Origin: Eledone cirrhosa
Taxonomy: Eukaryota
NCBI GenBank assembly: GCA_964016885.1
Contig: OZ024743.1
Coordinates: 305,288,001 to 305,352,000, forward strand
Length of the DNA stretch: 64,000 bases
Direction of reading: 5' to 3'
The translations under genes were made by a program, and so were the position numbers. Shown here one piece after another: positions 3,481-52,320 of this stretch. Below the pieces are notes generated by a model, which was not told the DNA's origin, did no database searches, and was given only the letters and a program-made list of their open reading frames with translations. Positions within the stretch are counted from its first letter, which is position 1. Each line of letters starts with the position of its first letter.

Positions 3481-5712
3481 AGCTCATCTCTACTGTCTGT
3501 AATATAGATATTCTACCCTGTTCTCTAGGCTGTATAGTGTACCATAATTTTACCCTAAGGGATTGTGTTTGTGCATATTCAAACATTACACTCCTTGCAA
3601 CTTTCCTTTCTAATCTAGATATTACATGACTTCATGTATCTTTAGCTCAATCCCCTTGTCCACACTTTTTGAAATATAACTGCTGTCTCTACTAGTCCTT
3701 GAATTCATCAGTCAATTATTATTTTATATCAAGGATTTTTATCTCACTTTACACCTCAGTTGGTCACTTGAAAGTTCATGACTCTTCTTGACTTTTGTAT
3801 TCTTCCTTATTTGTACTGTATTCTTCCTTATTTGTACTCCTCCAATCTTACACAATCCTTGACTTGTCACAATAATTAGGACCGTCGAAAAATATATTTG
3901 ATTGACATGCAGCAACTTCAAACACCGTTGTTTTTTTCTCATTTGCAAGCCAAGTCCCTACTAAATCTTAACCATCTATGAACCTAACAGATCATTAGAC
4001 AATTCTACCCATAGCTTTTCACATACCATATTCTCTTTCATCTCATGAACATTATATCAATATAGAAGTTAGCAAACTTATCGGAGGGCTCCACTACTCT
4101 TGGCAATAATTGGGTTTCAAACTTGATCACAGTTAAATACAGATGTAACTGAAACTATTTCTTTTCTTTTGGCCTGTTCCATCACATCCGTCATCCACCT
4201 CAAAGTCATAGGCACAAATCACCTGAAATTATTCACACCTAAATATGCAGCTACACTTAAGTAAAGAATGCTGCTAGCAATTCCCCCAAAAAGCCACTCC
4301 TACCAACAAAATGACTACCATCCATAAAAAAAAATATGTCTTCAAGTATCACATAGCTTGCACATTCTTTCATCTCTTGAATTGTAACCAATTCTTATGG
4401 TTTCTTGCCCAACGAATTTCTACCAACTTAGTGGAACTTCCTTACCCTTCACTCCTCAACAATGTAAGCAGTACTCCTATGGATAACATTTCTATGTGCA
4501 TTATCTGACATGTATTCAACTCTACATTGTATACACTTTGCAAACATCAATAAAACATTATTTCTCCATTACAATAGTTTCCCTACTATGTATATGTATA
4601 TATACACGCCAGTTGGAAAGCCTTTATGTAGAAACTCAACTTGCAAGAAATAGCAGGTAAATCAGCTTCAAATCACATCCTATTGGGTTGAAAAAATGAT
4701 AAGCACATTGGAAGATGTAGTTTTTGATATACAAGATAAAAATGAGATAATTATTGCAATATCGAAGTTCATTTGGGTTTAAACTATAATAATAACACAT
4801 CAAGTAGGTAAACACCCAGCCTGTTCTATCATCCTTAAAACCTGCTCTTCAGAGCTTGACTCTATGCCAAACTCTTGAATAAATCCACAGGAATCTCTTA
4901 TGATCCTTGGAAATATGCTGTTGTTTGTCCTGCTCCCAAGAAGATAGCTCACTTTGATTTCACCAAATACTGATATATTTATTTCACTTTCAAAATTTCT
5001 TTTACAACTTGGATTTGAACAAACACTTTATGATGGCAGAAAGGTAAATGTATGAGCTGTAGAGCAATTTAGTTACATCTGTTCTCCAGGATATGATCTG
5101 AAGATCTAGAACTACATTATCCAGTGTGTCTCTAATTATTATGACTATTCTTAAGAATACAATATAGCAGCTTCAGTTGAATGAACAATAAATCCAGTTG
5201 GTAGAATGTATGTTCCAAGTGGGTGTCTCTGACCATTCTCCACAGTAATGCCTTTGTCTGTGGGGTGTGGCTGAGGCTCTGTTCAGACTGGGATGTAATG
5301 TCTGTTTCTTCCCCCTCTCCTTTTCTTTTATTTCTTGATCCCTTTTTTTCTTTACTTTTTTTCTTCCCATTTTTGTTCCCTTTAATAATGTGTTTTTTAT
5401 TAAATACTGCTCAATAATTTTTATACAATGTCAATGAGTTTTCCACGACGTTGTGAGATTTGGTATATTGAAAATATTTGTTTTTTTCATTTAAATTATT
5501 TTATAATAAAAATTCTGCCTTAAAAAAATAATATCTATTATGTGCCGTTTCTATCTGAGGATTATAATATGAAGACAAGTGGTAAAAATACTACTTGAGA
5601 CATTGCATCTTATGCAAAACATATAAAATGTGGAAAATTTACTGAAACAGAGATTGTGATAATTAAAAGATAGTTTATGAAGAGAAAAATTATAAAAACT
5701 GAAACTAATTAC

Positions 5713-14847
<9,135 letters not shown>

Positions 14848-15160
14848 CTGTAAAGAGTAAATATTCATTTATGTCTTAAATATTCCTTTATGTCATGTTG
14901 ATAGATATATCAACTATTTCAGAATGTTAGTATATGTGTTAATACTGTTGAATATAGCAGTGGTTAGTGTATGTTATATTATATCGTAAAGGTGATGATG
15001 ATGATGATGATGATTATGATATTAAGAATCTTGACATGAATATGCATATATGCGTATATATCTAGCTGAAACTTTACAATAAGAACAAAACATGCCGAGA
15101 CTTATCTCCCAAACTTATCATGGCGGAGTTCGCTACCCGCAAGTGCGAGCCCTGCAAAAT

Positions 15161-15485
15161 GGAATGGCTGTTACAGTATGTCTCCCTCGCCTTCCTCCGA
15201 GGCAATATCCTCTCCATCCTGTTCACTAGCACCATGAGGTGGAGTGGCTGTTCCTGTGTGTCTCCTTTGCCATCCTCCGAGGGAATATCTTCCCCATCCT
15301 CTCCCCCGGGACCACGAGATGGAGTGGCTGTTCTAGTGTGTCTCTCGAGCCTTGCTCCGAGGCAATATCTTCTCCATCATATCCCCCCCGGGACCACTAG
15401 GTGGAGTCACTGTTCCTGCGTGTCTCCCTTGTCATCCTATGAGGCAATGTCTTTTCCATGCTATTCACCAAAACCACGAGACAGT
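15161..15485. repeat. 80-bp GC-rich tandem repeat, about 4 diverged units (mirror ~27441..27765)
   Basis: GGAGTGGCTGTTC/GGAGTC starts near 15161, 15241, 15321 and 15403. Confidence 0.85.
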
Positions 15486-15594
15486 GATCAATATTAATAT
15501 ATGATCTAAGCTTTTATTATTTTCAATAAGTTATTGTTACCAAACCATTGTATCTCAGTATTATCAAATAATTGAACGTGTGTTTTAAAATGTG

Positions 15595-15875
15595 GATTCG
15601 CATGTCCTAGTGGTATGTTTATTGGACTTACGATGATAATATCGTATGTTTGATTCCTGGACTATGTTGTGTGTTGTGTTTTTGAACACATTACTTTATT
15701 CACGCTGCTCCAGTATACTCAGCTGAAAATGAGTACCAGTAATAGCTAGATGTTTGACCCTGCGATCGACTGGCGTGCTGTCCAGTGGAGATTCTTAAAC
15801 TTTCAGTCACTTAATACTATGGAAACTGGGATAATAGCCAGCTCAAGGAGCCTCCGAGCTCGAGACACACTTTAG
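15595..15875 (+). mobile_element. Diverged tRNA-derived SINE (mirror ~27055..27330 -)
   Basis: CATGTCCTAGTGG A-box remnant, GTTTGATTCC B-box, CTCCAGTATACTCAGCTGAAAATGAGTACC body. Confidence 0.7.
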
Positions 15876-16206
15876 ACATTTAGTTTAGAAACGATGAGAG
15901 GATTTTGAAAAGTATGAGAAAGTTATAATCTTCACATAACATTTTTACTTTAGAAAAGTAGTCTAAATAATAGGGTATATGGCCTCCTCAACGGAAAAAA
16001 GGAACATTTGCACCTGTGGTACTTACACTGTGGTTTGCTGGGCGGAAATACTACCATTATACTGAAGAGCATGTTACATTTTCTTCCGTTATTTCAAAAT
16101 TATATTGGTCATTAACTACTATCTTGTCATATATTATTTTGACTTTTTAATTTTCATATACCACTTCACACACTTAAATATACTATTATTCATTGTAATG
16201 CATTCA

Positions 16207-16271
<65 letters not shown>

Positions 16272-16280
16272 TACACGCAT

Positions 16281-16312
<32 letters not shown>

Positions 16313-16370
16313 GTAATACGGTGAAAGCTTATATTTCTAATTTCAAAGTCGCTCACTGTTTCAAAACATA

Positions 16371-16415
<45 letters not shown>

Positions 16416-16458
16416 AATTATAAAAAATAAACAAAGAAGCCTTCAATACATCAAAAGT

Positions 16459-16514
16459 CTTTATTAGCTGACAGTGTTCGTCCCATTAATAGGGACTCAT
16501 CAGAGCAAGTAAAG
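16459..16514 (-). ncRNA. Degenerate type-I hammerhead motif in a Penelope-like pLTR remnant (mirror 26326..26381 +)
   Basis: CTGATGA-GTCCC(tattaat)GGGAC-GAAC-act-GTC. The core has GAAC where GAAAC is canonical. Adjacent to 41-bp tandem repeats. Confidence 0.55.
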
Positions 16515-16635
16515 AGACAAGAAGTATTAACGGCCAGAACAAGCCAAAAGTAAAGAGACAAGAAGTATTAACGGCCAGAACAAGCCAAAAGTAAAGAGAC
16601 AAGAAGTATTAACGGCCAGAACAAGCCAATATATA

Positions 16636-16836
16636 TATGTATTGAAACAGTGAGCGACTTTGAAATTAGAAATGTAAGCTTTCACCGTATTTTTTACTAA
16701 ACATTTTTTTAGCCTGATAGTGGAGTTTAGAACCCTCAGAGAAATAGAAAAAGATGAGTATTGACGTACATGGGAGTCGAACCCACATCTTTGGTTATCC
16801 ATACCACTGTGCTACCATTAAACCGACACATCACCC
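16636..16836 (-). mobile_element. tRNA-derived SINE (mirror 25963..26160 +) with an inverted copy of its 3' 55 bp at 16316..16370
   Basis: A-box-like GGTTTAATGGTAG and B-box GGTTCGACTCC. No complete cloverleaf is evident. Confidence 0.7.
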
Positions 16837-17973
16837 ATCTACTTCCATTCAAATTAGAAGTTACATTCTCAGCAAGTAAATGTCAAGTAAGTATATATAT
16901 ATATATATATATATATTAACACTTTCAGCTATGATTATAATTCATTTAAACTCAACTACCTTGTTTATGTCCTTGATCAAAGCACTGAACGTATTCAGTT
17001 ATGATTTAAGACAAGACTATGAACTCTTCACTCTCCTCTCTCTATATTCTTGGACAAACAACTTATCTCTTCCTCTCCTATATGGTTGATTTCATTTGTG
17101 ACTTTCAACAAAATAATAACCTCTCCCAGATGTATCCTGTAGTAAAAATTCATACAATAAAATAACGGACTTTATTCTGACAAACAGAAAATACAAGTAT
17201 ATACATATATCGGTATAAGCAAGGCCGAAGTGTCTTCTGATACTCTTAATCATGCAATGTTCAGAAAATACCATGCTGGATGGGCGAAACATTGGAACAG
17301 ATTTACTACTATCTTGTTTCATCTTTCAAGCATCCAGTTATGAGAATCTCGACGGCGTTAGTGAAACATATATAATCCTTGAAATCCCGGAATAGAAACT
17401 ATAAGAAAAATTGAAGTGTCATCTAAAAACTGAAAGATTATGTTAACAGATTCAGGTGAGGATTACTTTGAACTATCGAAAATATATAAATATTTCAAGA
17501 CATAAAAGCCTCCAATTAATGACTGGATTTCAAAAGCGAAATATTTGCATACTGTCCTCATATTCGAAAATATTTGCTTGTTTCTTGGAAAACCTGTCCA
17601 CCTGAACACCAACCACATCAGCGAACAGAAAACTCATGTCAAATGATTTCACCCTTATCCATGACTTCCTTACATTATATACCCTTAGCTACCCAAAGAT
17701 TCACCCAACATAGAGTTCTACTTGGCTCTTAGTAATACCATTCTCTGGACCATTATTAACCAATGTATCCGGACTGAATGATCGATACTTCCTTTCAAAT
17801 ATTTTCAACTTTATATACACTCTTCTTCAAAAGTATACTATTCACTAACTAAACATTTGCCCAACATACAGCTCTTACTTTTCTCAGATCTAACAAATTA
17901 ATAACACAAAAAGAAGAGATGACATCCCTCATTCCTCAATTTTTCACAGATACCGTACAATTTTTGTAATTTC

Positions 17974-23656: not shown

Positions 23657-23856
23657 NNNNNNNNNNNNNNNNNNNNNNNNNNNNNNNNNNNNNNNNNNNN
23701 NNNNNNNNNNNNNNNNNNNNNNNNNNNNNNNNNNNNNNNNNNNNNNNNNNNNNNNNNNNNNNNNNNNNNNNNNNNNNNNNNNNNNNNNNNNNNNNNNNNN
23801 NNNNNNNNNNNNNNNNNNNNNNNNNNNNNNNNNNNNNNNNNNNNNNNNNNNNNNNN
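23657..23856. other. Assembly gap (200 N)
   Basis: Exactly 200 N, typical of a fixed-size scaffolding join. Confidence 0.99.
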
Positions 23857-24985: not shown

Positions 24986-25841
24986 ATGACGGATACATTG
25001 GTTAATAATGGTCCAGAGAATGGTATTACTAAGAGCGAAGTAGAACTATATGTTGGGTGAATCTTTGGGTAGCTAAGGGTATATAATGTAAGGAAGTCAT
25101 GGATAAGGGTGAAATCATTTGACATGAGTTTTCTGTTCGCTGATGTGGTTGGTGTTCAGGTGGACAGGTTTTCCAAGAAACAAGCAAATATTTTCGAATA
25201 TGAGGACAGTATGCAAATATTTCGCTTTTGAAATCCAGTCATTAATTGGAGGCTTTTATGTCTTGAAATATTTATATATTTTCGATAGTTCAAAGTAATC
25301 CTCACCTGAATCTGTTAACATAATCTTTCAGTTTTTAGATGACACTTCAATTTTTCTTATAGTTTCTATTCCAGGATTTCAAGGATTATATATGTTTCAC
25401 TAACGCCGTCGAGATTCTCATAACTGGATGCTTGAAAGATGAAACAAGATAGTAGTAAATCTGTTCCAATGTTTCGCCCATCCAGCATGGTATTTTCTGA
25501 ACATTGCATGATTAAGAGTATCAGAAGACACTTCGGCCTTGCTTATACCGATATATGTATATACTTGTATTTTCTGTTTGTCAGAATAAAGTCCGTTATT
25601 TTATTGTATGAATTTTTACTACAGGATACATCTGGGAGAGGTTATTATTTTGTTGAAAGTCACAAATGAAATCAACCATATAGGAGAGGAAGAGATAAGT
25701 TGTTTGTCCAAGAATATAGAGAGAGGAGAGTGAAGAGTTCATAGTCTTGTCTTAAATCATAACTGAATACGTTCAGTGCTTTGATCAAGGACATAAACAA
25801 GGTAGTTGAGTTTAAATGAATTATAATCATAGCTGAAAGTG

Positions 25842-25912
<71 letters not shown>

Positions 25913-26325
25913 TTGACATTTACTTGCTAAGAATGTAACTTCTAATTTGAATGGAAGTAGATGGGTGATATGTTGGTTTAATGGTAGCACAGTGGTATGG
26001 ATAACCAAAGATGTGGGTTCGACTCCCATGTACGTCAATACTCATCTTTTTCTATTTCTCTGAGGGTTCTAAACCACACTATCAGGCTAAAAAAATGTTT
26101 AGTAAAAAATACGGTGAAAGCTTACATTTCTAATTTCAAAGTCGCTCACTGTTTCAATACATATATATATTGGCTTGTTCTGGCCGTTAATACTTCTTGT
26201 CTCTTTACTTTTGGCTTGTTCTGGCCGTTAATACTTCTTGTCTCTTTACTTTTGGCTTGTTCTGGCCGTTAATACTTCTTGTCCCTTTACTTGTGGCTTG
26301 TTCTGGCCGTTAATACTTCTTGTCT

Positions 26326-26381
26326 CTTTACTTGCTCTGATGAGTCCCTATTAATGGGACGAACACTGTCAGCTAATAAAG
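26326..26381 (+). ncRNA. Degenerate type-I hammerhead motif (mirror of 16459..16514)
   Basis: CTGATGA at 26337, stem II GTCCC/GGGAC, then GAAC-act-GTC; preceded by four ~41-bp tandem units (three in the left arm). Confidence 0.55.
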
Positions 26382-26507
26382 ACTTTTGATGTATTGAAGG
26401 CTTCTTTGTTTATTTTTTATAATTTTTTTAATATATATATATATATATAAGTATGTTTTGAAACAGTGAGTGACTTTGAAATTAGAAATATAAGCTTTCA
26501 CCGTATT

Positions 26508-26718
<211 letters not shown>

Positions 26719-26834
26719 ATGAATGCATTACAATGAATAATAGTATATTTAAGTGTGTGAAGTGGTATATGAAAATTAAAAAGTCAAAATAATATATGAC
26801 AAGATAGTAGTTAATGACCAATATAATTTTGAAA

Positions 26835-26899
26835 TAACGGAAGAAAATGTAACATGCTCTTCAGTATAATGGTAGTATTTCCGCCCAGCAAACCACAGT
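26835..26899 (+). other. Candidate non-coding first exon of the SRCR-MAM gene (mirror ends at 16027 on -); start approximate
   Basis: Consensus donor GTAAGT at 26900 in non-repetitive sequence. An upstream exon is implied because the ATG exon begins right at a pyrimidine-rich AG acceptor. Confidence 0.35.
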
Positions 26900-28069
26900 G
26901 TAAGTACCACAGGTGCAAATGTTCCTTTTTTCCGTTGAGGAGGCCATATACCCTATTATTTAGACTACTTTTCTAAAGTAAAAATGTTATGTTAAGATTA
27001 TAACTTTCTCATACTTTTCAAAATCCTCTCATCGTTTCTAAACTAAAAGTCTAAAGTGTGTCTCGAGCTCGGAGGCTCCTTGAGCTGGCTCTTATCCCAG
27101 TTTCCATAGTATTAAGTGACTGAAAGTTTAAGACTCTCCACTGGACAGGACGCCAGTCGATCGCAGGGTCAAACATCTAGCTATTACTGGTACTCATTTT
27201 CAGCTGAGTATACTGGAGCAGCGTGAATAAAGTAATGTGTTCAAAAACACAACACACAACATAGTCCAGGAATCAAACACACGACATTATCATCGTAAGT
27301 CCAATAAACATACCACTAGGACATGCGAATCCACATTTTAAAACACACGTTCAATTATTTGATAATACTGAGATACAATGGTTTGGTAACAATAACTTAT
27401 TGAAAATAATAAAAGCTTAGATCATATATTAATATTGATCACTGTCTCGTGGTTTTGGTGGATAGCATGGAGAAGACATTGCCTCATAGGATGACAAGGG
27501 AGACACGCAGGAACAGTGACTCCACCTAGTGGTCCCGGGGGGGATATGATGGAGAAGACATTGCCTCGGAGCAAGGCTCGAGAGACACACTAGAACAGCC
27601 ACTCCATCTCGTGGTCCCGGGAGAGAGGATGGGGAAGATATTCCCTCGGAGGATGGCAAAGGAGACACACAGGAACAGCCACTCCACCTCATGGTGCTAG
27701 TGGACAGGATGGAGAGGATATTGCCTCGGAGGAAGGCGAGGGAGACATACTGGAACAGCCATTCCATTTTGCAGGGCTCGCACTTGTGGGTAGCGAACTC
27801 CGCCATGATAAGTTTGGGAGATAAGTCTCGGCATGTTTTGTTCTTATTGTAGAGTTTCAGCTAGATATATACGCATATATGCATATTCATGTCAAGATTC
27901 TTAATATCATCATCATCATCATCACCTTTACGATATAATATAACATACACTAACCACTGCTATATTCAACAGTATTAACACATATACTAACATTCTGAAA
28001 TAGTTGATATATCTATCAACATGACATAAAGGAATATTTAAGACATAAATGAATATTTACTCTTTACAG

Positions 28070-28163
28070 ATGATGAAGTTGAAAATGTATCCATCTCACC
28101 TGAGTTATACTTACCTTATATTAAGTGTATTGGTTGCTCTGACTTTATCTGAAGACGTTACAT
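28070..28163 (+). CDS. Copy R exon 1: start codon and signal peptide
   Basis: [31 protein letters not shown]; tctttacag|ATG ... ACAT|gtaagt. Confidence 0.82.
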
Positions 28164-31100
28164 GTAAGTAGAGAACAATCTATGTTTTCTGTCGGGGAAA
28201 GAAAAGAAAAATATATGTATTTATAGCTATTAAAATAAGGCCTCAAGTCAAGTATTCTATCTCTAGGGAAAAAAAAAAAATTATAATTGCCAAGATATAC
28301 CCACAGCACCAGTATTTTATTAAAAATATAAATGATCTATTTGTGCCACACAATAGATATAACATCCCCTCGGAGGAACAAGTCCAGTAAAGGTTGTTCA
28401 GGTAACACCAGTACTCACCCATACATACCATTCTCCCCTCTCCACACCACAGATTCAGCCCAAGGAAAAGCTGATACAATTTGGTACCATTGACATTGCA
28501 ACTCATTTCTACAACTGAGTGAACTGGAGCAACATAAAGTAAAGTGTTTTGCTCAAGGACACAATGCACCACCTGGTCTGGAATGTGAACTCATAACCTC
28601 ATGATAATTCCAACGTTCTAACCATATATATGAGAGAGAGAGAGAGAGCGAGAGCGAGAGAGAGAGAGAGAGAGAGTGTGTGTGTGAATTTCATATATCT
28701 AATGATATACGGTATGTTTAATAAACAAACATTTGGAAAGACTAGCTATGTATATTGAAAGGCTGACGGCTAGCACTGCCTAGCGGATTCCAGCAGAAGC
28801 AGAGGGGGACAACTGTCAATGTACATTTCAGGTTCTGGCCATCATCAGCACTGTACTTCCCTGTTATCTCCTAGAACATGAAACAGGAGAAAACATATAG
28901 TTTCTTCACCTGTATAGATGGGATGATTAGCCTCATATGCAAATTACACTAATTATCAGTGGCAGGACTTAAGGACTTGGACAGTACTACCATCCGTACT
29001 CATCCTGAGCCCATTTTGGACTACTAGAAAAACCACTTTCAGTGCTTCCTCAACGACCATGTCACCACCCCAGAAATCCTCCTGCAGAACACCACCACCC
29101 CAACTTCCTCTCCAGCATTGGATGTCACTCACCCTAACATTCAAGAATTAAAAAGAAGCATTTTACTCCATGAAACCCAGAAAAGATCCCGAAACCAACA
29201 ATGTGGATTTTTCTCCCATGGTCACCCTGAACTGAAGACCCGGCTAATGCTCCTGACACGGAAAGTCTGGGGAGCTTAAACAGTCCCTGGGAATTTAAAA
29301 AATGCCAACATTGTGACAATTTTCAAGAAAGGAGACTGATGACTCTGTGGAAACTATCGCAGCATCTCCCTCCTAAGCATTGTTGGCAAGATCTTCATGT
29401 GAATCCTCCTGAATCGACCCCCACCCCCATAGCAGAAGAGTGCCTTCCAGAATCTCGATGTGGTTTCTGACATTCAAGAGGTACTGTTGATATGGTTTTC
29501 TGTGCAAGACAGTTCCAGGAGAAGAGCTTTAAACAACAGAAACCACTGATATCCATGTTTTGGGACCTGCAGTCACAAGATCATCAATGAGAGCCATAAT
29601 GTGGGTCACAAGACCATCAATGTGGGCCACTTTGTCTGCCTGGACCACTTTGTGTCTCTGATCCATATGTTCTATGATGGAATGGAAGGTTGAGTGAGCC
29701 ATCACGGTGCCCTCTTGGATCTTTTCCCCATCACTGGTGGCCTCAAGCAGGGGGCGTGTTGACTCCAACTCTCTTCTCCATATACCTTGTTGCCATGATT
29801 AACGAGATTTCCTCTGACAGCACTGGCGTTGACATCTGATATAGACACAGTAGCAAATTCTTCAGCCTCGCCTGACTTTGCTCTAATACAAAGATTACCA
29901 CCACACCGGCATGCGGAAACTTCACTTCGCTGATGACAATGTGACTGTGAACGAGACTATGATCAACAATCAGAGATCAGAAAATATTTACAACGAGGCT
30001 TACAAATGTTTAGGGATGCAGATCAATGTAAACAAATAAAGCCTTTGACCTGCAACGTCAGACGTCAGCATTAACATACACCGACAGCTGGTAGAAATGG
30101 GCAATGCATTTCACTACCCTTGCAGCATCCTCTCGAACAACATCATTTGCGAGAAAGACTTTCCCAACAGGATCAAAACGGCTGATGCTGCATACGGAGA
30201 CTTACACACCAGGTCTTCAGCAATCACAGCCTCACCATAAGAACCAATATCATGGTCTTTCGAGCCATGGTCTTTTCCACCCTTCTGTACACATGTGAGA
30301 TGGGGACCAGGTATTGTAGGATATCAAACATCTAGAGCAGTTCCAGCAAACGAATCTCTGAAGAATCCGCCGCATTAGTTGGGAGAACCACATTACCAAT
30401 AATGAGGTACTCTCTCAGGCGTCTCTCCCCAGCATTGAGGCTACCATCATTCAACATCACCTTCGCTGGGGTCATCAAGTGTCCAGAATCCATTCCACCC
30501 AACACCCTCACGTCATCCTGTTTGGAGAACTTGCCAGCAGGAAAAGGCAACACAGAGGCCCAAAACGATGCTTCATGGATCAGTTAAAGACATCCCTGAC
30601 ACAAGCCAACTTCAAACATGACATATGGGAAACCATTGCTGCGAATGGGCCTTCCTGAGAAAGGACCAAGACATTTGAATACAACATTCAACATAAAGAA
30701 GATCTGCAATGTGTTGTAAAGAAGGCCAGACTTACCCAACCACGTCCACCACCAACATTCCCTGTGACTCCTGCTCATGACTCTTCAGGAATAGACTGGG
30801 CCTCCACAGCCATATTCACCACACAAGGAGAGAGAATGAGGATCCCAGTGTTCGGACATGAGCAGGTGCCAAGGACGAGAGTCTCATGGCTCAACCACCA
30901 GTACAAACAAGAATGATTAGAGACTACTAGTGCTAAAGAGATTCTGTGGGCTCAGTGTCGGAAACACATTCTTTGTTCATATCCACAAAACTACATTGAT
31001 GTCACTGGGCATTAACATCTAAAATGAGATCAGCGTCATCAGAATCAGTACTTGCTGGTAGTCATGTTTGCAATAAAGCGGGGAAAATGTGATCACCACC

Positions 31101-34100
31101 AAACGAGAAAGCTAGAACAAATTTAAGTTCCCAGGCCACTTTAGGCTCCAATATTTTACAGAGAACCTCATGGATGAGGGAACAGTTGTAGAGGATGGAC
31201 GAAAGGTGGGCTGGCAGTGGATGGTTAGATTTTGAGTGAAAGTCATGGCCATTGAACCTCATGAGGAGTTTCACTTGTTTCCAGCCTTTGTCAACAAAAC
31301 TGATATTGCAAGTGAGTTTGGTGTAGTGACAGATAGTAACAGCAAATTTACTAGGTGACATTAATTATCAGGAGAAAGGAAATCCTAATATTCATGCCAA
31401 AAGTATGGCTTTGTGGTTAAGAATCTTACTTCACAACTATGTAGTTCCATGTTCATTTCCATAGCTTGGAATTTTGTACAGGGTTGACTAATGTGGAATT
31501 CGGTTGTTGCAAATTCTGCAGAAGTCAATAAATAACTAATAAAACTTTTGGGTTTCATGTGTCAATACTAAAACATTTTCAATTTCATTTGGGAATGATT
31601 CATAATAATGAACTTCTTGGCAGGAGTTCTGTATGAAAGATATGGTGTATTAATGTTGTTACTACAGATAAAATGGTGAATTAATGTTGATACTACAGAT
31701 AAAATAGTGTATTAATGCTAGTACTACAGATAAAATGGTGTATTAATGTTGATACTACAGATAAAATGTTGAATTAATGTTGGTACTACTGATAAACTGG
31801 TGTATTAATGTTCATACCAAAGATACAATAATGTATTAATGCTAGTACTACAGATAAAATGGTGAATTAATGCTGGTACTACAGATAAAATGGTGTATTA
31901 ATGTTGATACTACAGATAAAATGGTGTATTAAAATTGATACCAAAGATAAAATGGAGTATTGATGCTGGTGCTACAGATAAAATGATATATTAATGCTAG
32001 TACTACATGAACTGGTGAATTAATGTTGATAACAAAGATAAAATGGTGAATTAATATATATATATTAAATATATTAATGCTGGTACTACTGATAAAATGC
32101 TGTATTAATGTTGGTACTACAGATAAAATGTGCCTCCTTAATTTGAAAGGGAAAAATTTCAAAATATTATGTGGAACATTGGTCAATATGGTTACACAAT
32201 TACCCACAAGTATGTGTGCATATATATGGTCTGTATGGAACCATCCAGCCCTTGTTAGCAGAGAAAGCAGGCACTAAAACAATGATAATTTTGATGATAT
32301 ATATATATATATGTGAGTATGTTTATTCTTTTTTAGATAATGGAGATATTGACATAGATGGTAATCTAGTTAAAATCTATTATAATGGAAAATGGGGAAC
32401 CATTTGTTCAGGTTCAACTAATGTGATTAAAGTGGTATGTCGCAGTCTAGGACGCCAGTAAGTACAAGAAATATTTCTTTACAAGTTAAATATTACAATA
32501 GCTATGTGCTAGAAGAACTGTGTTGGTTTATGTCTATTATTTTGTGAAAGATAAGGTCTTGAATTAGATCCCACTGTATGGTAACTTGGACAAGTTTCTT
32601 CTATCATACCTTTGTTTTTACCCAATCTTGTGACTAAATTTGGGTTGGTGAAAACATTTCGGCGACCATAGTCGGGGCTAACATGTAATTCAAATGGTCT
32701 TCTCTTGATGATTATACCTGTACAGTCATCCATGTTTACTATGATATAATGAATAGATATCAGAATAATTATCATGAAAATTATTACAAGAAACCAAAGG
32801 TATAATGATATTGATCTAGTTTGCTTTTTCAATAGAATTTTCTTCATTTCACTTAGTTTAGTTATAAAATATAAATATCACGTCTTTATATATTTTTTTT
32901 TTACTTAGCCTTCCCAAGAATCATGCATATATCATAAATCATTGCTGTGATATCACCCCAAAATGGTCAAGTTTACTAATCAATGTAAAATATGTGTACG
33001 TATTGAACAGCATCTAAGAAAAATAAAAGACACTATTAAAGGGGACAGAAAAGGAAAAAAAAGTTACTTAAAAAGAGAAAAAGAAAAGGAAAAAAGATCA
33101 AGCAATGAAAGAAAGGAAAAGAGGGAGGGACAGAGTTACTGTGGATAATAATCAGAGACACCCATTGCAACAGCCACATCACCTCATGGGGTTCCCTCCT
33201 CATGTTAGCTGCAGCCTTTCTGATTTTTTAGAGGAAATCAGCAGTGCAGGGACTAAGGACACCAGGGGCCTTGATATAGACTGGTGCAAAGAGGGAACAC
33301 TCAGACTGCATTCATCAACAGATGACTATCTTCTCAATTTGTGGAGCTTATGAAAAGTATATATATATGAAGAGTATATATATATAGTTGTTATGATTGT
33401 TGATAAGTAGATATAAATTGTAGTACTGGCTAACACCTGCATCCTTAATTCTATGGCAATTATTTATCAATAAGTGCATTATTTATAAAATAACATACAT
33501 GGATAATTATCATCACATGATAGAGTGCACAGGAGGGGAAAAATCACAGTGCAATATGAAGTTTGTTCAATAAGTAATGAGAACATTTCAGGAGAAACAT
33601 TACTTCTTTTTATAAGCTTACAAAATGTTGTCACATTCAAATTAATGATCTCTCACATCTACACACTTGTGCAGGTGTCTCTCTCACCCCTGTAAGACTT
33701 CTTTACAGACTTTCTTCTGCAGACCTATCAGGAAATTTGCTGATGCCTTTTTCAGCTTCTTTGTTGACTTCAATCTGATTTCCCGAGGGACAGGAAGAAA
33801 TCACAAGATGCCAGGCTGGAACTGTAGAATGGGTGTTGTACCAGTTTTATTCCCCCGTTTGCAATCCAGGTGTTCACCAGCATTGATTGTATCATAGGAA
33901 AATGTCCTGGTGGAACTACTGCTCACCACTGCTTCACTGCTGTGGCCACTTCTAACTCATCTTCTCCTTGAAGCTTTTTAAAACTTCAAGATAATGTTCT
34001 TTATTCGTGATTTTGTCCTCAGAAACCCATTCAGCATGAATCAACCCCTGAGTGTCGAAGAAAGGCATTTTCTTTCCATGGCATTTTCTTTTCACTTGCT

Positions 34101-37100
34101 TATCTTTGTCTCCTTGGGCCTGGGAGAGGACACGTGCTTCCACTGACCACTCTCTGGGTCATACATGAATACCCAACTCTCATTGCAAGTTACTATTCAG
34201 TAAACCAGAATCAGCCTCTATCGTATCGAGAATGTCAGTGCAATATTCCATATGAAACTGCCTCTGGTTCTCCGAGAGAATCTTTGGCTCGAATTTGGCA
34301 TATATTTTCTGGAGGTCCAGATTTTGGTCAGAATCCATTCCTGTCTTATTGTTTAGTAATGCATCATGTGGATAGCAGCAAAGACATGTACATTAAAATT
34401 ACTCTTGAGTCACAAATAATCGGTGTGTGGGTTGGGTGGGGGAATACTCAGGGGATTTGGAATAAGCAGGGGGGGGGGGGGTCAGTAATTTTTCTAGGTT
34501 GTCTCCGTTGATTTAAAAAGAAACAGAATTGGTTGTTTAGTTTACATATTGCAAGACCCAACCCATCCTATTTATTTTATAAACATGGGATTTCTAGTAA
34601 TGTACTTTTTTTTTGTCGTGTATAATGTTTTTTAATGTATAGAGAAAATTGTCACAGGAATGTTAGCACTTAAAATAAAACTTTGCCAGAGATAGATGAG
34701 CAAAATTTAATAAGCTGGAGAGCTGGAATAAGAGTGGGGGATGGGGTGGAAAAAATCTGAAGAATTAATAAGTGTGGCAAGGTGGATTATTCAAGACCTA
34801 AGAGTTCTTTAATGTAATGAGAGCAAACCCTATAAACTCATAAAATGAGTAAAATATTGTATTGTTATTTTACTTTTTAGATATGCAAATTCTCGCAGAA
34901 TAAGTTCATCCATATCTTCCTACATGAGATCACCAATTTGCAGAGGAGATGAGAGCTCAATAATGGACTGTCATGCTTACTTTTCAAGTTACACTAGTTG
35001 TTCACGCTACAAACTTGGTGCTCGTTGCCAGGATGATCGTAAGTACAAAAGTTCATATAACATGTATCCATGTGAGATTATTATTGAAATAATTCTTTAA
35101 CTTTTTTAACAAATTACAAAACCAAGTTTTATATCTAGTTGTCTTGGTTGTTATCAAGATACTGACTTATCACTGTTAACATTTGCCACTGGAATAATTG
35201 CACTAGACACTGTAAATCAATAAAACACTTGGTAATTTCACTTTATTACAGCTGATGTTTATATTTACAGTAGTGAATTGTTATTTGTTTTGTTACATAA
35301 CATAGTCAGAGGAGAATGAAGGTACCCATAAAGTTTGAAGGCCTTCAAAGACTGGTGTACGTGAAGGTGTATGTGTAGAGAGAGGAGGTTGTGTGATTTA
35401 TTTCCTTATGATCAAGGTATGCAAATAAAATATAAATGAGAACAAAACTAGGAGCCTGGTCTGAATGTTTGTAACAGAGTGAACTGTTCTAAAGAAACCC
35501 GAAAATCTGAATGTGTGTGGCAGTGGTGGTAGAATTGGGGAGCATATGTGACCAATCACCTCATGACCAACCAATGAAAAAAGAATGATGGCACCAGCAA
35601 TGGGAGGATGTTAGAGGTATAATATTGACAGCACATGGCTCAGTGGTTAGAGCATTAGGCTTACAACCATTAGGTTGTAAGTTTGATTCCTGGGCCATGT
35701 GGTGTGTTGTGTCCTTGAGCAAGACATTTTATTTCATGTTACTCCAGTTCACTCAGCTGTAGTAATAAGTTGTGTCATCACTAGTGCCAAGCTGTATCGG
35801 CTTTTGCCTTTCCCTAGACAACATCAGTGGCATGGAGAGGAGAGACTGGTATGCATGGGTGACTTTTGGTCTTCCACAAACAACCTTGCCTTGATTTATG
35901 CCACAGAGGTGGAACTTTCTAGATGTAAATCTCATGGATATTTGTGACTGAAAGGGGTTTTTACCAATATCAAACTTTAACATGCTGAATTTTGTTATGA
36001 ATTGCTTCCCTTGACACTGTATTATGTATTAACCCTTTAATGTTCAAACTGGCCAAAACCGGCCAGAATTCTCTACCTCTTTCTGTTGAAACTGGCTGTA
36101 ACTGGTCACTCAAACTGATGTTAAGGTATTGTTCTCAAAATAAATACTTTCAAAATCTCATAGATTCGATATTATGTGAGATAATTATGCGAGATAAAGC
36201 CTTTACCATGAAAATATAATAGTATATATAGAGTAATATGAATGCTAAAGGGGAGATTACTCTATCGGTGACATAATGTGCCTAGAGTGCTGAGAAGATT
36301 AAAAAAACTAGATGACTGATTTTGAAAATGCCTAGCTTTGGCATTAAGACAAAATGAAAAATCCTCCACAAGTATTATAATTTTGATACATCTGTTATCA
36401 GTAATCTCTCTAAATATTGAATTTTAATGCACATTGGAGATAATCTTACAGAATACATATAATGAATAACAAATTAGACTTGTTTACTGGTTGGGGGTTT
36501 ATATAACATTTTATCTATATGCAAACATTCGTAGTTTAAAATATAGGATTTGCTATATCATCAATATCTGTTAGATGTTAGCACCTGTACTATACTGTGG
36601 TGTAACAATCCTTTTATGTATTTGTTTATTGAAATTAATTTAAGAAATCATTAATTATAATTTGTATGACATTCCAGCAAACAATGTGTATTGCTCCTTT
36701 GACAACAATATCTGTGAAATGACTATTGATGGCAACGATGAATATACATGGAAACGGGTACAGCCTAGCCAGTCCCCTCAAGGAAATGGACTTGACAAGG
36801 ATCACACAACTAAATCTAGATTTGGTAATTAGTTTCAGTTTTTATAATTTTTCTCTTCATAAACTATCTTTTAATTATCACAATCTCTGTTTCAGTCAAT
36901 TTTCCACATTTTCTATGTTTTGCATAAGATGCAATGTCTCAAGTAGTATTTTTACCACTTGTCTCATATTATAATCCTCAGATAGAAACGGCACATAATA
37001 GATATTATTTTTTTAAAGCAGAATTTTTATTATAAAATAATTTAAATGAAAAAAACAAATATTTTCAATATACCAAATCTCACAACGTCGTGGAAAACTC

Positions 37101-40100
37101 ATTGACATTGTATAAAAATTATTGAGCAGTATCTAATAAAAAACACATTATTAAAGGGAACAAAAATGGGAAGAAAAAAAGTAAAGAAAAAAAGGGATCA
37201 AGAAATAAAAGAAAAGGAGAGGGGGAAGAAACAGACATTACATCCCAGTCTGAACAGAGCCTCAACCACACCCCACAGACAAAGGCATTACTGTGGAGAA
37301 TGGTCAGAGACACCCACTTGGAACATACATTCTACCAACTGGATTTATTGTTCATTCAACTGAAGCTGCTATATTGTATTCTTAAGAATAGTCATAATAA
37401 TTAGAGACACACTGGATAATGTAGTTCTAGATCTTCAGATCATATCCTGGAGAACAGATGTAACTAAATTGCTCTACAGCTCATACATTTACCTTTCTGC
37501 CATCATAAAGTGTTTGTTCAAATCCAAGTTGTAAAAGAAATTTTGAAAGTGAAATAAATATATCAGTATTTGGTGAAATCAAAGTGTGCTAGCTTCTTGG
37601 GAGCAGGACAAACAACAGCATATTTCCAAGGATCATAAGAGATTCCTGTGGATTTATTCAAGAGTTTGGCATAGAGTCAAGCTCTGAAGAGCAGGTTTTA
37701 AGGATGATAGAACAGGCTGGGTGTTTACCTACTTGATGTGTTATTATTATAGTTTAAACCCAAATGAACTTCGATATTGCAATAATTATCTCATTTTTAT
37801 TTTATCTATCTTGTATATCTAAAACTACATCTTCCAATGTGCTCATCATTTTTTCAACCCAATAGGATGTGATTTGAAGCTGATTTACCTGCTATTTCTT
37901 GCAAGTTGAGTTTTCTACATAAAGGCTTTCCAACTGGCGTGTATATATACATATACATAGTAGGGAAACTATTGTAATGGAAAAATAATGTTTTATTGAT
38001 GTTTGCAAAGTGTATACAATGTAGAGTTGAATACATGTCAGATAATGCACATAGAAATGTTATCCATAGGAGTACTGCTTACATTGTTGAGGAGTGAAGG
38101 GTAAGGAAGTTCCACTAAGTTGGTAGAAATTCTTTGTGCAAGAAACCATAAGAATTGGTTACAATTCAAGAGATGAAAGAATGTGCAAGCTATGTGATAC
38201 TTGAAGACATTTTGTTTTATGGATGGTAGTCATTTTGTTGGTAGGAGTGGCTTTTTGGGGGAATTGCTAGTAGCATTCTTTACTTAAGTGTAGCTGCATA
38301 TTTAGGTGTGAATAATTTCAGGTGATTTGTGCCTATGACTTTGAGGTGGATGACGGATGTGATGGAACAGGCCAAAAGAAAAGAAATAGTTTCAGTTACA
38401 TCTGTATCTAACTGTGATCAAGTTTGAAACCCAATTATTGCCGAGAGTAGTGGAGCCCTCCGATAAGTTTGCTAACTTCTATATTGATATAATGTTCATG
38501 AGATGAAAGAGAATATGGTATGTGAAAAGCTATGGTTAGAATTGTCTAATGATCTGATAGGTTCATAGATGGTTAAGATTTAGTAGGGACTTGGCTTGCA
38601 AATGAGAAAAAAACAAGGATGTTTGAAGTTGCTGCATGTCAATCAAATATATTTTTCGACGGTGCTAATTATTGTGAAAAGTTAAGGATTGTGTAAGATT
38701 GGAGTATTACACTAGCAGTACAAATAAGGAAGAATACAAAAGGCAAGAAGAGTCATGAACATTCAAGTGACCAACTGAGGTGTAAAGTGAGATAAAAATC
38801 CTTGATATAAGATAAGAAATGACTGATGAATTCAAGGACTAGTAGAGACAGCAGTTATATTGCAAAGAGTGTGGACAATGGGATTTGAGCTAAAGATACA
38901 TGAAGTCATGTAATATCTAGATTAGAAAGGAAAGTTGCAAGGAGTGTAATATTTGAATATGCACAAACACAATCCCTTGGGGTAAAATTATAGTACACTA
39001 TATAGACTAGACAACAGTGTACAGTATATATACTACAGACTGTAGAGATGAGCTATGTCTATAGGTATAATATATATATATACCCGAGATAGCAGAGATG
39101 GTCTATATCTCTAGGTACAGTATATATACCCTAGAGAACAGAGATGGTCTATATGTCTAGGTACAGTATATATACCCTAGAGAACAGAGATGGTCTATAT
39201 GTCTAGGTACAGTATATATACCCTAGAGAACAGAGATGTCTATATCTCTAGGTAGAGTATATATACCTTAGAGAACAGAGGTGGTCTATATCTGTAGGTA
39301 CAGTATATATACCCTAGAGAACAGAGATAGTTTATATGTCTAGGTAAAATATATACCTTAGAGAACAGAGATGGTCTATATGTCTAGGTACAGTATATAT
39401 ACCCTAGAGAACAGAGATGGTCTACATCTCTAGGTACAGTATATATACCCTAGAGAACAGAGATGGTCTATATGTCTAGGTACAGTATATATACCTTAGA
39501 GAACAGAGATGTCTATATCTCTAGGTACAGTATATATACCCTAGAGAACAGAGATGGTCTATATCTCTAGGTACAGTATATATACCCTAGAGAACAGAGA
39601 TGGTCTATATGTCTAGGTACAGTATATATACCTTAGAGAACAGAGATGGTCTATATCTCTAGGTACAGTATATATACCCTAGAGAACAGAGATGGTCTGT
39701 ATCTCTAGGTACAGTATATATACCTTAGAGAACAGAGATGGTCTATATCTCTAGGTACAGTATATATACCCTAGAGAACAGAGATGGTCTATATCTCTAG
39801 GTACAGTATATATACCTTAGAGAACAGAGATGGTCTATATCTCTAGGTACAGTATATATATCCTAGAGAACAGAGATGGTCTGTATCTCTAGGTACACTA
39901 TATATACCCTAGAGAACAGAGATAGTCTATATCTCTAGGTACAGTATATATAGCTTAAAGAACAGAGATAGTCTATATCTCTAGGTACAGTATATATACC
40001 CTAGAGAACAGAGATGGTCTATATCTCTAGGTACAGTATATATACCCTAGAGAACAGAGATGGTCTGTATCTCTAGGTACAGTATATATACCTTAGAGAA

Positions 40101-43100
40101 CAGAGATGGTCTATATCTCTAGGTACAGTATATATACTCTAGAGAACAGAGATGGTCTATATCTCTAGGTACAGTATATATACCTTAGAGAACAGAGATG
40201 GTCTATATCTCTAGGTACAGTATATATATCCTAGAGAACAGAGATGGTCTGTATCTCTAGGTACACTATATATACCCTAGAGAACAGAGATAGTCTATAT
40301 CTCTAGGTACAGTATATATAGCTTAAAGAACAGAGATAGTCTATATCTCTAGGTACAGTATATATACCCTAGAGAACAGAGATGGTCTGTATCTCTAGGT
40401 ACAGTATATATACCTTAGAGAACAGAGATAGTCTATATCTCTAGGTACAGTATATATATCCTAGAGAACAGAGATGGTCTGTATCTCTAGGTACACTATA
40501 TATACCCTAGAGAACAGAGATGGTCTATATCTCTAGGTACAGTATATATACCTTAGAGAACAGAGATGTTTATATCTCTAGGTACACTATATATACCCTA
40601 GAGAACAGAGATGTCTATATAGGAACAGTATATATACCTTACAGAACAGAGATGTCTATATCTCTAGGTACAGTATATATACCCTAGAGAACAGAGATGG
40701 TCTATATCTCTAGGTACCGTATATATACCCTAGAGAACAGAGATGGTCTATATGTAGGTACAGTATATATACCCTAGAGAACAGAGATGGTCTATATGTA
40801 GGTACAGTATATATACCTTAGAGAACAGAGATGGTCTATATCTCTAGGTACAGTATATATACCCTAGAGAACAGAGATGGTCTAAATGTCTAGGTACAGT
40901 ATATATACCCTAGAGAACAGAGATGGTCTATATCTCTAGGTACACTATATATACCCTAGAGAACAGAGATGGTCTATATCTCTAGGTACACTATATATAC
41001 CCTAGAGAACAGAGATGTCTATATCTCTAGGTACAGTATATATACCCTAGAGAACAGAGATGGTTTATATGTATAGGTACACTATATATACCTTAAAGAA
41101 CAGAGATGTCAATATCTCTAGGTACACTATATATACCCTAGAGAACAGAGATGTCTATATGTCTAGGTACAGTATATATACCCTAGAGAATAGAGATATC
41201 TATATAGGTGCAGTATATACACCCTAGAAAACAGAGATGATGTATATCTCTAGGTACAGTATATATACCCTAGACGACAGAGATGGTCTATATATATATA
41301 GATACAGTATATATACCCGGGATAGTAGGGATAGTCTTTATATATATGTATATTATATGCACCCAAAATACCAGAATTAGTCTATATCTATATGTACATT
41401 ATATATACCCTAGGCAGTAGAGATAGTCTATATCTGTACATTATATATAATCTAGATGGTATAGATTGTCTTTATGTATATGTACCTTATATATACCCTA
41501 GACAGCAGAGATGGTCTATATCTATACAATATATACCCTAGACAGCAGAGATGGTCTATATCTATACAATATATACCCTAGACAGTAGAGATAGTCTATA
41601 TCCATATGTACATTATATATACTCCACACGACAGAGAGAGTCTTTATCTGTTGGCACATTGTATATACCCTAGATAGCAGAGAAGGCATTTATCCTATAT
41701 GTACATTATATATATATATATATACATTAGACAGTAGAGATATCTATAGATAAGGAATCAAACATTTATTTCTCAGAAAGGTACAGAGTCTGTGCTCTCT
41801 GTGTGAATAAGAAGTGATGGGTGGGTCCAGCTCATGCTGTAGCCTATGAATTTGTGCAAAAAAGATAATTGGAATACCTGACAGATCAAAAAAAGATTTG
41901 AAATTATCTGTGAGATGAAAAACTTGGTTATACCCCGAATGTATTTGATCATATATCGTCAGGATCTGAGACAACGGTAGCTAAAAGAAGGAGACCTTAA
42001 AATATTGTTGGACCATGTACTGCTCTCGGCATGAAACAGTAAAATAAAGAAGGAAAACAAAATTGTATATTTAATTACTAATTCACAATTAAGTTTAATA
42101 GTTTTCTCATCATGAACAAGATGTCGTTCTATCGATTTCTGTCCTTTTCTCTTTCATCCTTCTGGTTGCAAGATATCATAATAACTTCCCTTGATTCTGT
42201 ATGATGGAGAATGAAGATTTCATAATTACTTCCCTTGGTTCTCTCTGAGGTAGAATCAATATTTCATAGTTACTTCCCTTATTTCTCAAGGGGGTAGAAT
42301 GCAATTAATTGTTTCTACTTTAGGCACAAGGCCAGCAATTACCCAGTTGCAATTAATGATCAACATAAAGCATAAGATAAAGTTTTGAATTCAATTAAAG
42401 TGTTCTATGCTGTCTATCTGTCTGTCCGCTTGTCTATCTGTATGTGGTATGTATGTGTGTGTATATAAATATACGTATGTGTGTGCGTGCGCATGTTTAA
42501 ATGTATGTATGTATGTATGTATGTATGTATGTATGTATGTATGTATGTATGTATGTATGTATGTATGCATGTGTGTGTGTGTACGCACGTATGTATGGAT
42601 ATGTGTGTGTTTGTGTGTGTATGTATGTATGTATGTATGTATGTATGTATGTATGTGTGTGTGCGTGTATTTATGTATGTGTGCGTGTATTTATGTATGT
42701 GTGCGTGTATGTGTTTAATGGAAAACAGGAATTTTAAACACCACGAGTGGAGCATGTAAAATTAAAGAAGGATCTGCTTTACCTAGATTTTCAAAGAACC
42801 AAAATGACTTTATGTGCAATGAGTGTGGCCGAATTTGCCTCAGGAAATCTAGTCTTAGTCATCACACAAGTCATGTACAAAATGTTGCTGATTATGGTCT
42901 CTTTGGCATTTCTTCCTGTTGGAAGTGTGGAAAACTATGTGCCACGTCCAATCGACTGCAATGTCATTTCAAGGTTCACCAAGACAAAACAGTGAATTAA
43001 AGTTCATCACTGTAGCATATGCAGAAAGGAATGTAAATCTTTGGCAGGGCTAAAGTGTCAAGTTCGTGCCACCCATGTGTGGGAAGGAGATCAAGTAGAA

Positions 43101-50100: not shown

Positions 50101-52320
50101 TAATACAAGCGGCCGAAATGTGTTTCCTCCGAAGGGTCTTTGGGGTAACGTTACTCGATAGAGAGCGGAGCACGGAGATTAGAAAGCCACTTTAGGTAGA
50201 GTTGCTACTTCTCTGAATTGAGTGATCCAATTCTATGGACATGTGGTTAGAATGTCTCAGGATAGAATCGCTGGACAGATTTTACGGGCAAAGGAAAATA
50301 AAGTAAATGTTGTGAATGAAGGATATAATTCTTTGGCAGCAATTTGGGTGGGGTAGTCGATTATGTCGACCCCAGTACTTAACTGGTACTTTATTTTATC
50401 GATCACAAAAAGATGAAAGAGAAAGTTGCTCTCGACGGTATTTGAACACCGAACGTAGATAGTGATAACTAAATACTGCAAAGTGGTAACTAAATGTTCG
50501 ACGCTCTACCAATTACTGTCAATCCATCACCCTAATGAATGATATAACAACACGATATTTACCATCTAAAATGTTTAAAGTATTACTTTAAGAAATTACT
50601 TTGCAGTTTTCTAAACTAAACCGTTTTATATATACATATTAGCCGAAATCCAAACCAAATGAGACTGATAGTTGTCATTATGCCATGTTCTGGTAAGTAT
50701 ATTGTCAACAAATCACATAGATGCATTATTTTTCATATCTTTGAACATTGTATATTTAATTTTACAGGGAAATACATGCTAGCCGCTGGAGGTCTTCCCT
50801 TAATAGACAAAACAACATTGACAACAAATAGCTTCAGATATAATATGAAGAGTCTTACATTCTACTATCACATGTATGGAAAAGACACAGGGAGCCTAAA
50901 TGTCTATATTAAAAGTACTAATGGAATAAAGACTAAGATGCTATCATTAAAAGGCAGTCTAGATGATGAATGGAAATATGTATGCATTTCTCTGTCACTC
51001 AAATCAGGGTAAGAAAAATATTTCGATTTTAACATCTTTTGGTAGTTCATTGTTTATTTTATAGTAAAACTGAAAGTTTTAGCATTAGCCTTTGGTGGAT
51101 TATAGATTTTGACAGACCAACAAAAAAAAAAACCGGGCAGTAAGAATACACGATCTCCTGGGCAATAATTCTTTCGAATATTAGCACAAGGACAGCAATT
51201 TGGGGGAAGGAGAAAGTCGATTATACTGAACTCGTACTTTATTTTATTGACCCAGAAATGATGAAAATAGAGATGACCTTGGTGGTATTTGATCTCAAAA
51301 CGTAGAAATCATCACGAAAAGGCCACAAAATATTTTGTCAGATACTCTACCGATTCTACTGCCCTTCTCCTGTGCAATAATGATTTAATAATTCACCTTG
51401 ACAACCCATGTAACAACGATTTGACAGTTCACCTCTGTCTTCTGTAATACTAATTTAACTATTCCCTTTTGAACAAGCTCTACTATATGAATGACTTATT
51501 CTATTGTCGTAGGGAAGCGGAGTGAATTATTTCCCTTTGAATAAACTCTGGTCTATGAATGACTTATTTTATTGTTGTAAGGAAGCGAGGAAGCGAAGTG
51601 AATTATTGCCCTTTGAATAAACTCTCGTCTATGAATACCTTTTTTTACCAAAATGTGACGGAGTATTGGAAAGCTGTCACCAGATATTTGAATTTAAAAT
51701 ATAGAAGAACGAATCTAAATATTCAAAATTCATTATTTTCTTAAGTAAGTATAAGACTGTAGATATAATGGTAGGGAACAATCGATTATACTAACTCGTC
51801 TAGTTGACTTCTGTAAAGAACCATGACATATATAGTTTGTTTTCAAATTGTATTTTTTTCTGATATGCTTTGACTTGAGATTCTACAGTTTACATAAATA
51901 ATGGTTTCTGATTTAGGCACCAGGCCAATAATTTGGGGGATGGGAATTCGATTGAATAGACCTCAGTGCTTTATGGTTCTTTATTTTATTGACCCTGTAA
52001 GTTTGAAAGACAAAGCTAACCTCGGCGAGATTTGAACATAAAGGGACGTAACTATATGTCGTAAAGCATGCTGTCTGATGCTCTATCGATTACTACCAAT
52101 CTACCACCCTTAGTTCACATAAATAATACTGGAGGTAGAATCTCATGAGAGAACATCTTTGTAAGCTATATTCTTTATTATACACTACACTAAGCAGAAA
52201 GAAAGGGAAGTATAGACACAGAAAATAATAAGTACAGAGAGAGAAAAACAATGGAAGAGACATCAAATAAACTTTCCCATTTGTCATATGTCATAGAATC
52301 ATTTTTGTTAAGTGTGCAAA

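Follow-up and report, generated by a model that had tools for sequence, protein, structure and literature searches.

Modular proteases and fast-evolving secreted gene families are already known kinds, and several described systems share parts of the architecture considered here. The nearest are orthologues with SRCR, MAM, LDLa and trypsin domains in O. bimaculoides, O. sinensis, O. vulgaris and Argonauta (45 to 51% identical), which are alike in length (about 1980 aa), in domain set and order and in the presence of a catalytic triad, and whose automatic name omits both the SRCR and the protease. Enteropeptidase (TMPRSS15) and other type II transmembrane serine proteases (TTSPs) also place MAM, LDLa and SRCR modules before an S1 protease, with an activation site of the basic residue|IVGG kind and an Asp189 pocket as canonical trypsin-type features. 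MALRD1 and MAMDC4 alternate MAM and LDLa modules and are of a membrane-anchored type, while arthropod ModSP, Tequila/Sp22D and clip-SPH proteins are secreted, combine recognition modules with a protease and include active and dead paralogues. In the receptors DMBT1, CD163 and MARCO, the calcium-dependent SRCR motifs are of the VCDD and EDAGV type.

The window analysed here, a 64,000-nt stretch of the Eledone cirrhosa genome whose positions are used below, holds parts of two copies of such a gene, L and R. The tblastn matches to the octopod orthologues are colinear along the gene, with 50 to 51% identity to the Octopus proteins over about 1937 columns, and R, L and two further copies (c5 and c3) form one clade apart from other octopod proteins (SH-aLRT 100, quick tree).

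Gene model, copies and assembly layout

The features are as follows.

3467..17771, no strand: left arm of an inverted match that extends at least 250 kb outside the window
23657..23856, no strand: 200-N scaffolding gap between the arms
24990..39068, no strand: right arm; 98.8% of aligned columns match the left arm; resumes past the satellite to at least window-relative 263,900
39019..41748, no strand: intronic tandem satellite, unit about 46 nt, spanning about 2.6 kb in R, 22 kb in L and 110 kb in c4
28070..28163, plus: copy R exon 1, signal peptide; best local match to octopod orthologue N-termini, spliced to exon 2 in an X4 contig
32337..32457, plus: copy R exon 2, SRCR first half; Pfam SRCR E = 5.7e-5 on the L twin, AG/GT ends, X4 joint 32457>34881
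34881..35038, plus: copy R exon 3, SRCR second half, six replacements relative to L; spliced and letter-identical to R in X4
36678..36824, plus: copy R exon 4, MAM 1 start; X4 joint 35038>36678
50768..51008, plus: copy R exon 5, MAM 1 core; Pfam MAM 39.3 bits, above cut-off
61005..61099, plus: copy R exon 6, MAM 1 end
63491..63610, plus: copy R exon 7, MAM 2 start; 12 replacements and no silent change relative to L
Beyond the window, to G000:C4:305,501,309: remaining 28 exons of copy R
14754..14847, minus: copy L exon 1, signal peptide
10174..10294, minus: copy L exon 2, SRCR first half
7557..7714, minus: copy L exon 3, SRCR second half
5713..5859, minus: copy L exon 4, MAM 1 start
Left of the window, to about G000:C4:305,049,840: further 31 exons of copy L

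Copy R runs from window position 28,070 to window-relative 213,309 as an open frame of 1967 aa in 35 coding exons, with exon 3 the third of them. Two candidate exons at 32129-32210 and 37130-37401 were rejected as intronic because they are frameshifted in c3 and in a further copy, c4. The domains follow in the order signal peptide, SRCR, six MAM, LDLa, MAM, LDLa, MAM, LDLa, SRCR-like, two LDLa, SRCR-like and S1 protease, giving one SRCR, 8 MAM, 5 LDLa and one serine protease with no membrane anchor; the two late modules are labelled SRCR-like from their cysteine pattern and the enteropeptidase match, and this labelling is provisional. The first-pass annotation had proposed a recognition receptor. 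Read as a membrane receptor this fails, as there is a short hydrophobic stretch only at the N-terminus, no transmembrane segment is found (the top 19-residue hydropathy after residue 40 is 1.13 in R and L) and the protease domain ends the protein; the product is a predicted secreted modular serine protease.

The first domain belongs to the SRCR group by its six spaced cysteines spread over two exons, the six-cysteine, two-exon type by which the group is defined. Each exon alone scores below the Pfam cut-off (16.9 and 23.8 bits), and the whole domain of the orthologues passes it (33 to 34 versus 26.1). The acidic ligand-binding cluster is absent from this domain, which reads ICSGS and YKLGA at those places. 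Homologue search with the MAM1 exon gave no match, and the MAM3 exon retrieved the orthologues.

With respect to transcription, the second sample, X4, is of a kind not on record and is taken as RNA from its GT..AG joints. One 533-nt X4 contig joins exons 1-2-3-4 at GT..AG with a depth of 1636, compared with 2 to 7 for intron contigs, and is letter-identical to R in exons 2 and 3. No such exon 1-4 joints are present in runs X1, X5 and X6, the RAD runs among them, X5 and X6, barely covering the unique sequence of the window. We saw no L-type contig in X4, in which contigs drop variants, and the L-specific exon-3 letters are not among the sequencing-run variants listed. In X4 the 3' half of exon 4 (36707-36882) is covered roughly twice as deeply as the contig of exons 1 to 3, suggesting that a second transcribed copy (perhaps c3) merges there.

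Three young copies, L, R and c5, lie on scaffold C4 with 94 to 95% protein identity. Copy L is on the minus strand with an open frame of 1968 aa, and c5 lies on the plus strand, tail to tail with L in one gap-free contig. From exon 6 on, c5 is open over 30 exons, its 5' part being lost at the gap G000:C4:304,780,352. Its first five exons are missing from the assembly, and X1 contigs carry letters found in neither L nor R (e.g., at window position 34716), which could belong to c5 or to another allele. The same scaffold holds an older copy, c3, 16 Mb away with an open frame of 1963 aa, a single last exon standing alone and, at 370 Mb, a distant paralogue, d6. Copy c4 is a pseudogene (G000:C4:305,799,000-305,940,000), a 5' fragment that lacks exon 1 and contains a broken donor as well as a stop. 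Its exon 3 and the start of exon 4 are about 70 to 85% identical to R (75% for the exon-3 patch), with nearby introns at 92 to 95%, and the patch may come from a more distant donor, none matching in the assembly. We rejected c4 and c5 as halves of one gene, as there is no gap at c4 and no continuation in the 100 kb after it.

We also observe several repeats around these copies. Besides the satellite listed above, intronic satellites occur at window positions 1-3517 and in introns of c3, c4 and c5. Their lengths differ enormously from copy to copy, being about 2.6, 22 and 110 kb at one intron and about 4 versus 51 kb at another. The left contig end (21012-23656) carries reverse-transcriptase-like fragments between inverted repeats, 94 to 96% identical to a copy near c3. 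Helicase- and Rep-like reading frames, which we take to be Helitron-like, lie within a copy R intron (L029, G000:C4 about 305,437,700-305,440,700), with relatives inside the d6 locus. On another scaffold, dozens of same-strand MAM exons with internally repeated blocks extend over about 600 kb (G000:C1:363,470,000-364,075,000), either a single giant MAM-repeat gene or an array.

The inverted match between L and R extends for at least 250 kb on either side of the gap. A match of this size fits uncollapsed haplotypes and a large recent inverted duplication alike, so we put the odds as even that L and R are alleles of one locus placed back to back, under balancing selection and with an active/dead polymorphism, an arrangement compatible with the explanation we prefer below. 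The arms mirror each other around the 200-N gap, and the match takes in the gene, a spacer of 40 to 50 kb and, from the inverted copy that follows, its last exon, in keeping with alleles; past the spacer, however, the L and R contigs no longer correspond. Similarly, the R contig begins in an AT-rich repeat exactly at the start of homology, with L continuing into a flank shared with c3, and L and R are closer to each other than c5 is to R, but the joint placement of L and c5 in one gap-free contig indicates that true young paralogues exist. The X1 and X4 contigs mix L-type, R-type and new letters, as alleles would, yet a third copy explains them equally well, and the main X1 path has a depth of 23 to 31 where a contig carrying a c3-type insertion has 9.6, which hints weakly at about three loci, depth being no copy number. 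In any case, at least two loci are needed because three near-identical sequences (L, R and c5) are present in one diploid assembly.

Divergence between the copies

The first-pass annotation had singled out exon 3 as the place where the arms differ most. Its counts were reproduced: 34881-35038 (plus) and 7557-7714 (minus) differ by six substitutions in 158 nt, all of them replacements that leave the cysteines intact, and the surrounding intron is nearly clean, with one difference in 300 positions within 150 nt on either side. Exon 1 adds one silent change, exon 2 one replacement and exon 4 one replacement plus one silent change, for a total of eight replacement and two silent differences over exons 1 to 4. 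Two of the exon-3 substitutions (7695/7696) are neighbouring bases, hence five events rather than six, and with c3 as outgroup four of the changes fall in L (two adjacent, probably one event) and two in R.

Against the background of the arms (158 differences in 13,335 columns, 1.18%), the excess in exon 3 holds up if this interval is preset (P of at least six = 0.012) and disappears if it is not, since some 158-nt interval reaches six with P = 0.98. Six intron differences also lie together, inside 7059-7228. Nor do the ratios from which selection had been proposed carry that weight, as 8:2 (P = 0.49) and 6:0 (P = 0.16) are both compatible with neutrality and the four-exon counts alone do not reach significance. 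The exon-3 count is thus real but weak alone, because an interval that dense is expected in the arm and 8:2 is a neutral ratio, and we dropped it as stand-alone evidence (shuffles reach six in 98%, and the neutral ratio fits).

The whole gene gives a clearer result, with amino acids differing between L and R at 95 of 1966 codons. Counting yields N = 110 and S = 18 for a dN/dS of 2.11 (P = 0.0016), and 1.7 to 2.3 with other transition weights; with one converted exon removed (see below), it becomes 2.6 to 3.5. The size of the L/R signal varies with the model, likelihood omega being 1.34 (P = 0.27, GY94-F3x4, all exons), 1.77 (P = 0.03) or 1.83 (P = 0.02), and 2.2 to 2.9 without the converted exon (P = 0.013 to 0.0007). 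Diversifying selection, as first proposed for the exon-3 domain, gains support in this respect, dN/dS between L and R exceeding 1 in 12 of 12 counting and likelihood settings, significantly so in 11. Counting for other pairs gives 2.21 (c5/R), 1.92 (c5/L) and 1.25 (c3/R, omega 0.8 to 1.25), with no significance for c5/R and c5/L under GY94-F3x4; c5 and L, which lie in cis, show the same replacement excess as L and R.

Introns provide a second yardstick. Between L and R, exons diverge by 2.14%, the nearest intron by 1.11% and more distant intron by 1.28%, and relative to a wider intron sample (1.52%) there are 95 replacement differences versus 64 (P = 0.0002), a 1.48-fold excess with an exon-bootstrap interval of 0.91 to 2.14. 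Silent sites lie under the intron rate (14 versus 20.5), so that omega is raised. Site models for R, L and c5 reach LRT values of 58 to 60, which fall to 4 to 9 when codons with multiple differences are dropped, and for R, L and c3 without such codons the values are 0 to 0.2.

With respect to where the changes fall, exons are strongly heterogeneous (chi2 = 126, 33 df). The proposed concentration in the SRCR domain is seen among the four exons first compared and is lost over the whole gene, where SRCR has 7 of the 95 amino-acid differences (7.5 per 100 residues), MAM2 20, MAM5 18, the protease 16, MAM6 11 and MAM7 7. The hot exons have replacement/silent counts of 12/0, 12/1, 11/1, 10/0 and 7/0 with clean flanks, and the LDLa modules, MAM3, MAM8 and the last SRCR-like module are almost invariant. 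After correction over 35 exons, M2a, M7a and the converted M5a are significant and exon 3 is not. Exon 3 is nevertheless fast in c3 versus R (17/158, compared with 56/1136 in the flank, P = 0.005). It is fast again when the orthologues of O. sinensis and O. vulgaris are compared, its 52 of the 1967 codons carrying 5 of the 41 differences (P = 0.005). What emerges appears to be a diversifying family of predicted secreted sensor-proteases, with the SRCR exon among several fast spots.

The MAM residues that vary among R, L and c5 recur at equivalent positions across modules (P = 0.008) and favour the loops at one end of the sandwich (20/185 versus 6/172, P = 0.008; ends inferred from strand order). 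The loop pattern was not seen for R versus c3 (P = 0.39 to 0.50), and per-exon rates here and in the Octopus pair show no correlation (rho = -0.17). Several of the protease-domain differences sit beside the active site. AlphaFold models the N-terminal fragment of the O. bimaculoides protein with a mean pLDDT of 60.5, the SRCR lying mostly under 50.

Conversion and the catalytic site

The converted exon is MAM5 exon a of copy L, which together with about 190 nt of upstream intron resembles c3 (23 differences in 299 flank positions; 17 exon sites common to L and c3). We read this stretch as a conversion tract because silent and intron changes accompany the likeness to c3. Exon-scale conversion from a paralogue, raised at the outset as an alternative for exon 3, is thereby present in the family, at this tract around the MAM5 exon. 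The first protease exon has scattered letters common to L and c3, with clean flanks.

These observations bear on a reading with no adaptive cause, in which constraint relaxed once the gene had duplicated and patches converted from older paralogues produce the clusters of replacement changes. The MAM5 tract, the several protease-exon letters common to L and c3, the 75%-identical exon-3 patch of c4 amid introns of 92 to 95% and the dependence of site-model support on multi-difference codons are all in line with it. However, the flanks of the hot exons are clean and silent changes in them are nearly absent, whereas a tract from an older donor would import silent and intron changes as well, and omega rises to 2.2-2.9 rather than falling once the tract is removed. 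Single-difference codons alone retain an N/S of 72/9 (P = 0.002). Cysteines and frames are fully retained: none of the 95 L/R differences hits a cysteine and no stop is gained, compared with 10.6 such hits expected (P = 2e-5). Plain relaxation is disfavoured because the scaffold is constrained while change is in excess elsewhere, and we regard a non-adaptive origin as unlikely. From the pattern of substitutions, it is instead quite probable that the copies diversify adaptively.

The arms also differ at the catalytic site. The S1 triad is complete in R and c5 (TAAHC, DIA, GDSGG) and incomplete in L (TAGYC) and c3 (TSGYC), where Tyr replaces His; the His is kept in R, c5, d6 and the four named octopod orthologues, and Tyr is found in L and c3 (loci L211-L215). 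The state is read from the assembly, and the Tyr is common to two loci 16 Mb apart. R and c5 are accordingly predicted to be active S1 peptidases, and L and c3 would encode non-catalytic homologues with frames otherwise open. This His/Tyr difference between the arms is weightier in consequence than any exon-3 change. Among relatives, P0162 and P0034 have altered catalytic motifs (CYVDSGG; THPKC with VDDGG), and loss of protease activity may recur in this protease family.

Candidate function and relation to known systems

Our preferred reading is a young multi-copy family of predicted secreted modular proteases, likely shaped by positive selection and short conversions, and most likely recognizing and cutting foreign material in mucus (probability roughly 0.6). 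SRCR and MAM loops would bind a changing ligand, such as the surface of a microbe or parasite, and would thereby deliver the zymogen to its activator or substrate, after which the protease domain would cut a host or foreign substrate. Arms-race selection could then alter the loops that bind the ligand as well as those surrounding the active site. Copies L and c3 may be non-cutting partners or decoys that bind without cleavage, as serine-protease homologues act as non-cutting partners in arthropod cascades. That mucosal defence in particular is the driver we hold at slightly under an even chance.

The skin-mucus proteome of O. vulgaris contains one peptide, with two spectra, of the O. sinensis/vulgaris orthologue A0A6P7S478 in its supplement file 1 (PMC10138644, consulted in part), a protein about 50% identical to that of Eledone. 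Proteins bearing the orthologue's automatic name are among the mucus proteins that change in senescence, listed without accession in the text consulted (PMC11431876).

Selection could also be real and its driver digestion or saliva, with an enteropeptidase-like activator or a prey-protein protease diverging in substrate choice. Enteropeptidase is the best PDB match in sequence (E = 5e-38) and the best match in fold, 16 of the 95 L/R differences fall in the protease domain, several next to the active site, and SRCR genes are highly expressed in digestive tissues across invertebrates according to the part of that survey consulted (PMC10855680). The protein, however, has no anchor, no SEA or CUB domain was found in it or matched in the orthologues, the dead copies retain open frames and the mucus peptide places an orthologue in skin mucus, and we consider a digestive role doubtful. 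A reproductive driver, in which sexual selection acts on a protease of gametes, spermatophores or egg coats, appears still less likely. Zonadhesin bears MAM domains, both MAM and SRCR domains occur in gamete-recognition proteins, and quick loop evolution would be consistent with such a role, but no tissue data point to the gonad, and the one proteome consulted finds the orthologue in skin mucus.

An extension of the preferred mucus reading, which we think improbable, is an undescribed cephalopod system of non-self recognition, in which MHC-like micro-conversion under balancing selection moves MAM and SRCR loops from copy to copy of a secreted sensor-protease and the catalytic His is switched off in some copies or alleles. 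If this were true, the mucus of individuals would hold different mixes of cutting and decoy forms. Likewise, if L and R prove to be alleles, a single-locus active/dead polymorphism would be unusual. Few fast-evolving recognition genes are described in cephalopods, and the cluster gives a concrete one, in which young copies differ at 5 to 6% of residues compared with 1 to 2% in introns and in which active and predicted dead forms adjoin. It thereby enables copy-specific tests of cephalopod mucosal immunity, digestion or reproduction. In a literature search that mostly left subscription journals outside, we found no published description of the function, expansion or selection of this architecture.

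Compared with the described systems, the Eledone gene differs from its octopod orthologues in being present as three young copies plus an older one and a pseudogene, with His replaced by Tyr in two copies. Unlike enteropeptidase, its product has no membrane anchor, gives no SEA or CUB hit and has 8 MAM domains instead of one; its predicted activation bond is PN|IQGG with Pro at 189, in contrast to the basic residue|IVGG and Asp189 of enteropeptidase and the TTSPs. MALRD1 and MAMDC4 lack a protease domain (P0003), whereas the Eledone protein has a C-terminal trypsin domain. With DMBT1, CD163 and MARCO it shares the SRCR fold and its cysteines, exon 3 aligning to CD163 repeats (E = 1.5e-5), but the SRCR is single and N-terminal rather than part of an array, its last-strand acidic EDAGV type is replaced by YKLGA, and the protein is not a membrane receptor. 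The arthropod modular proteases are alike in combining secreted recognition and protease parts, with active and dead forms side by side, a likeness at the level of shared domains; their modules are others, with no MAM array.
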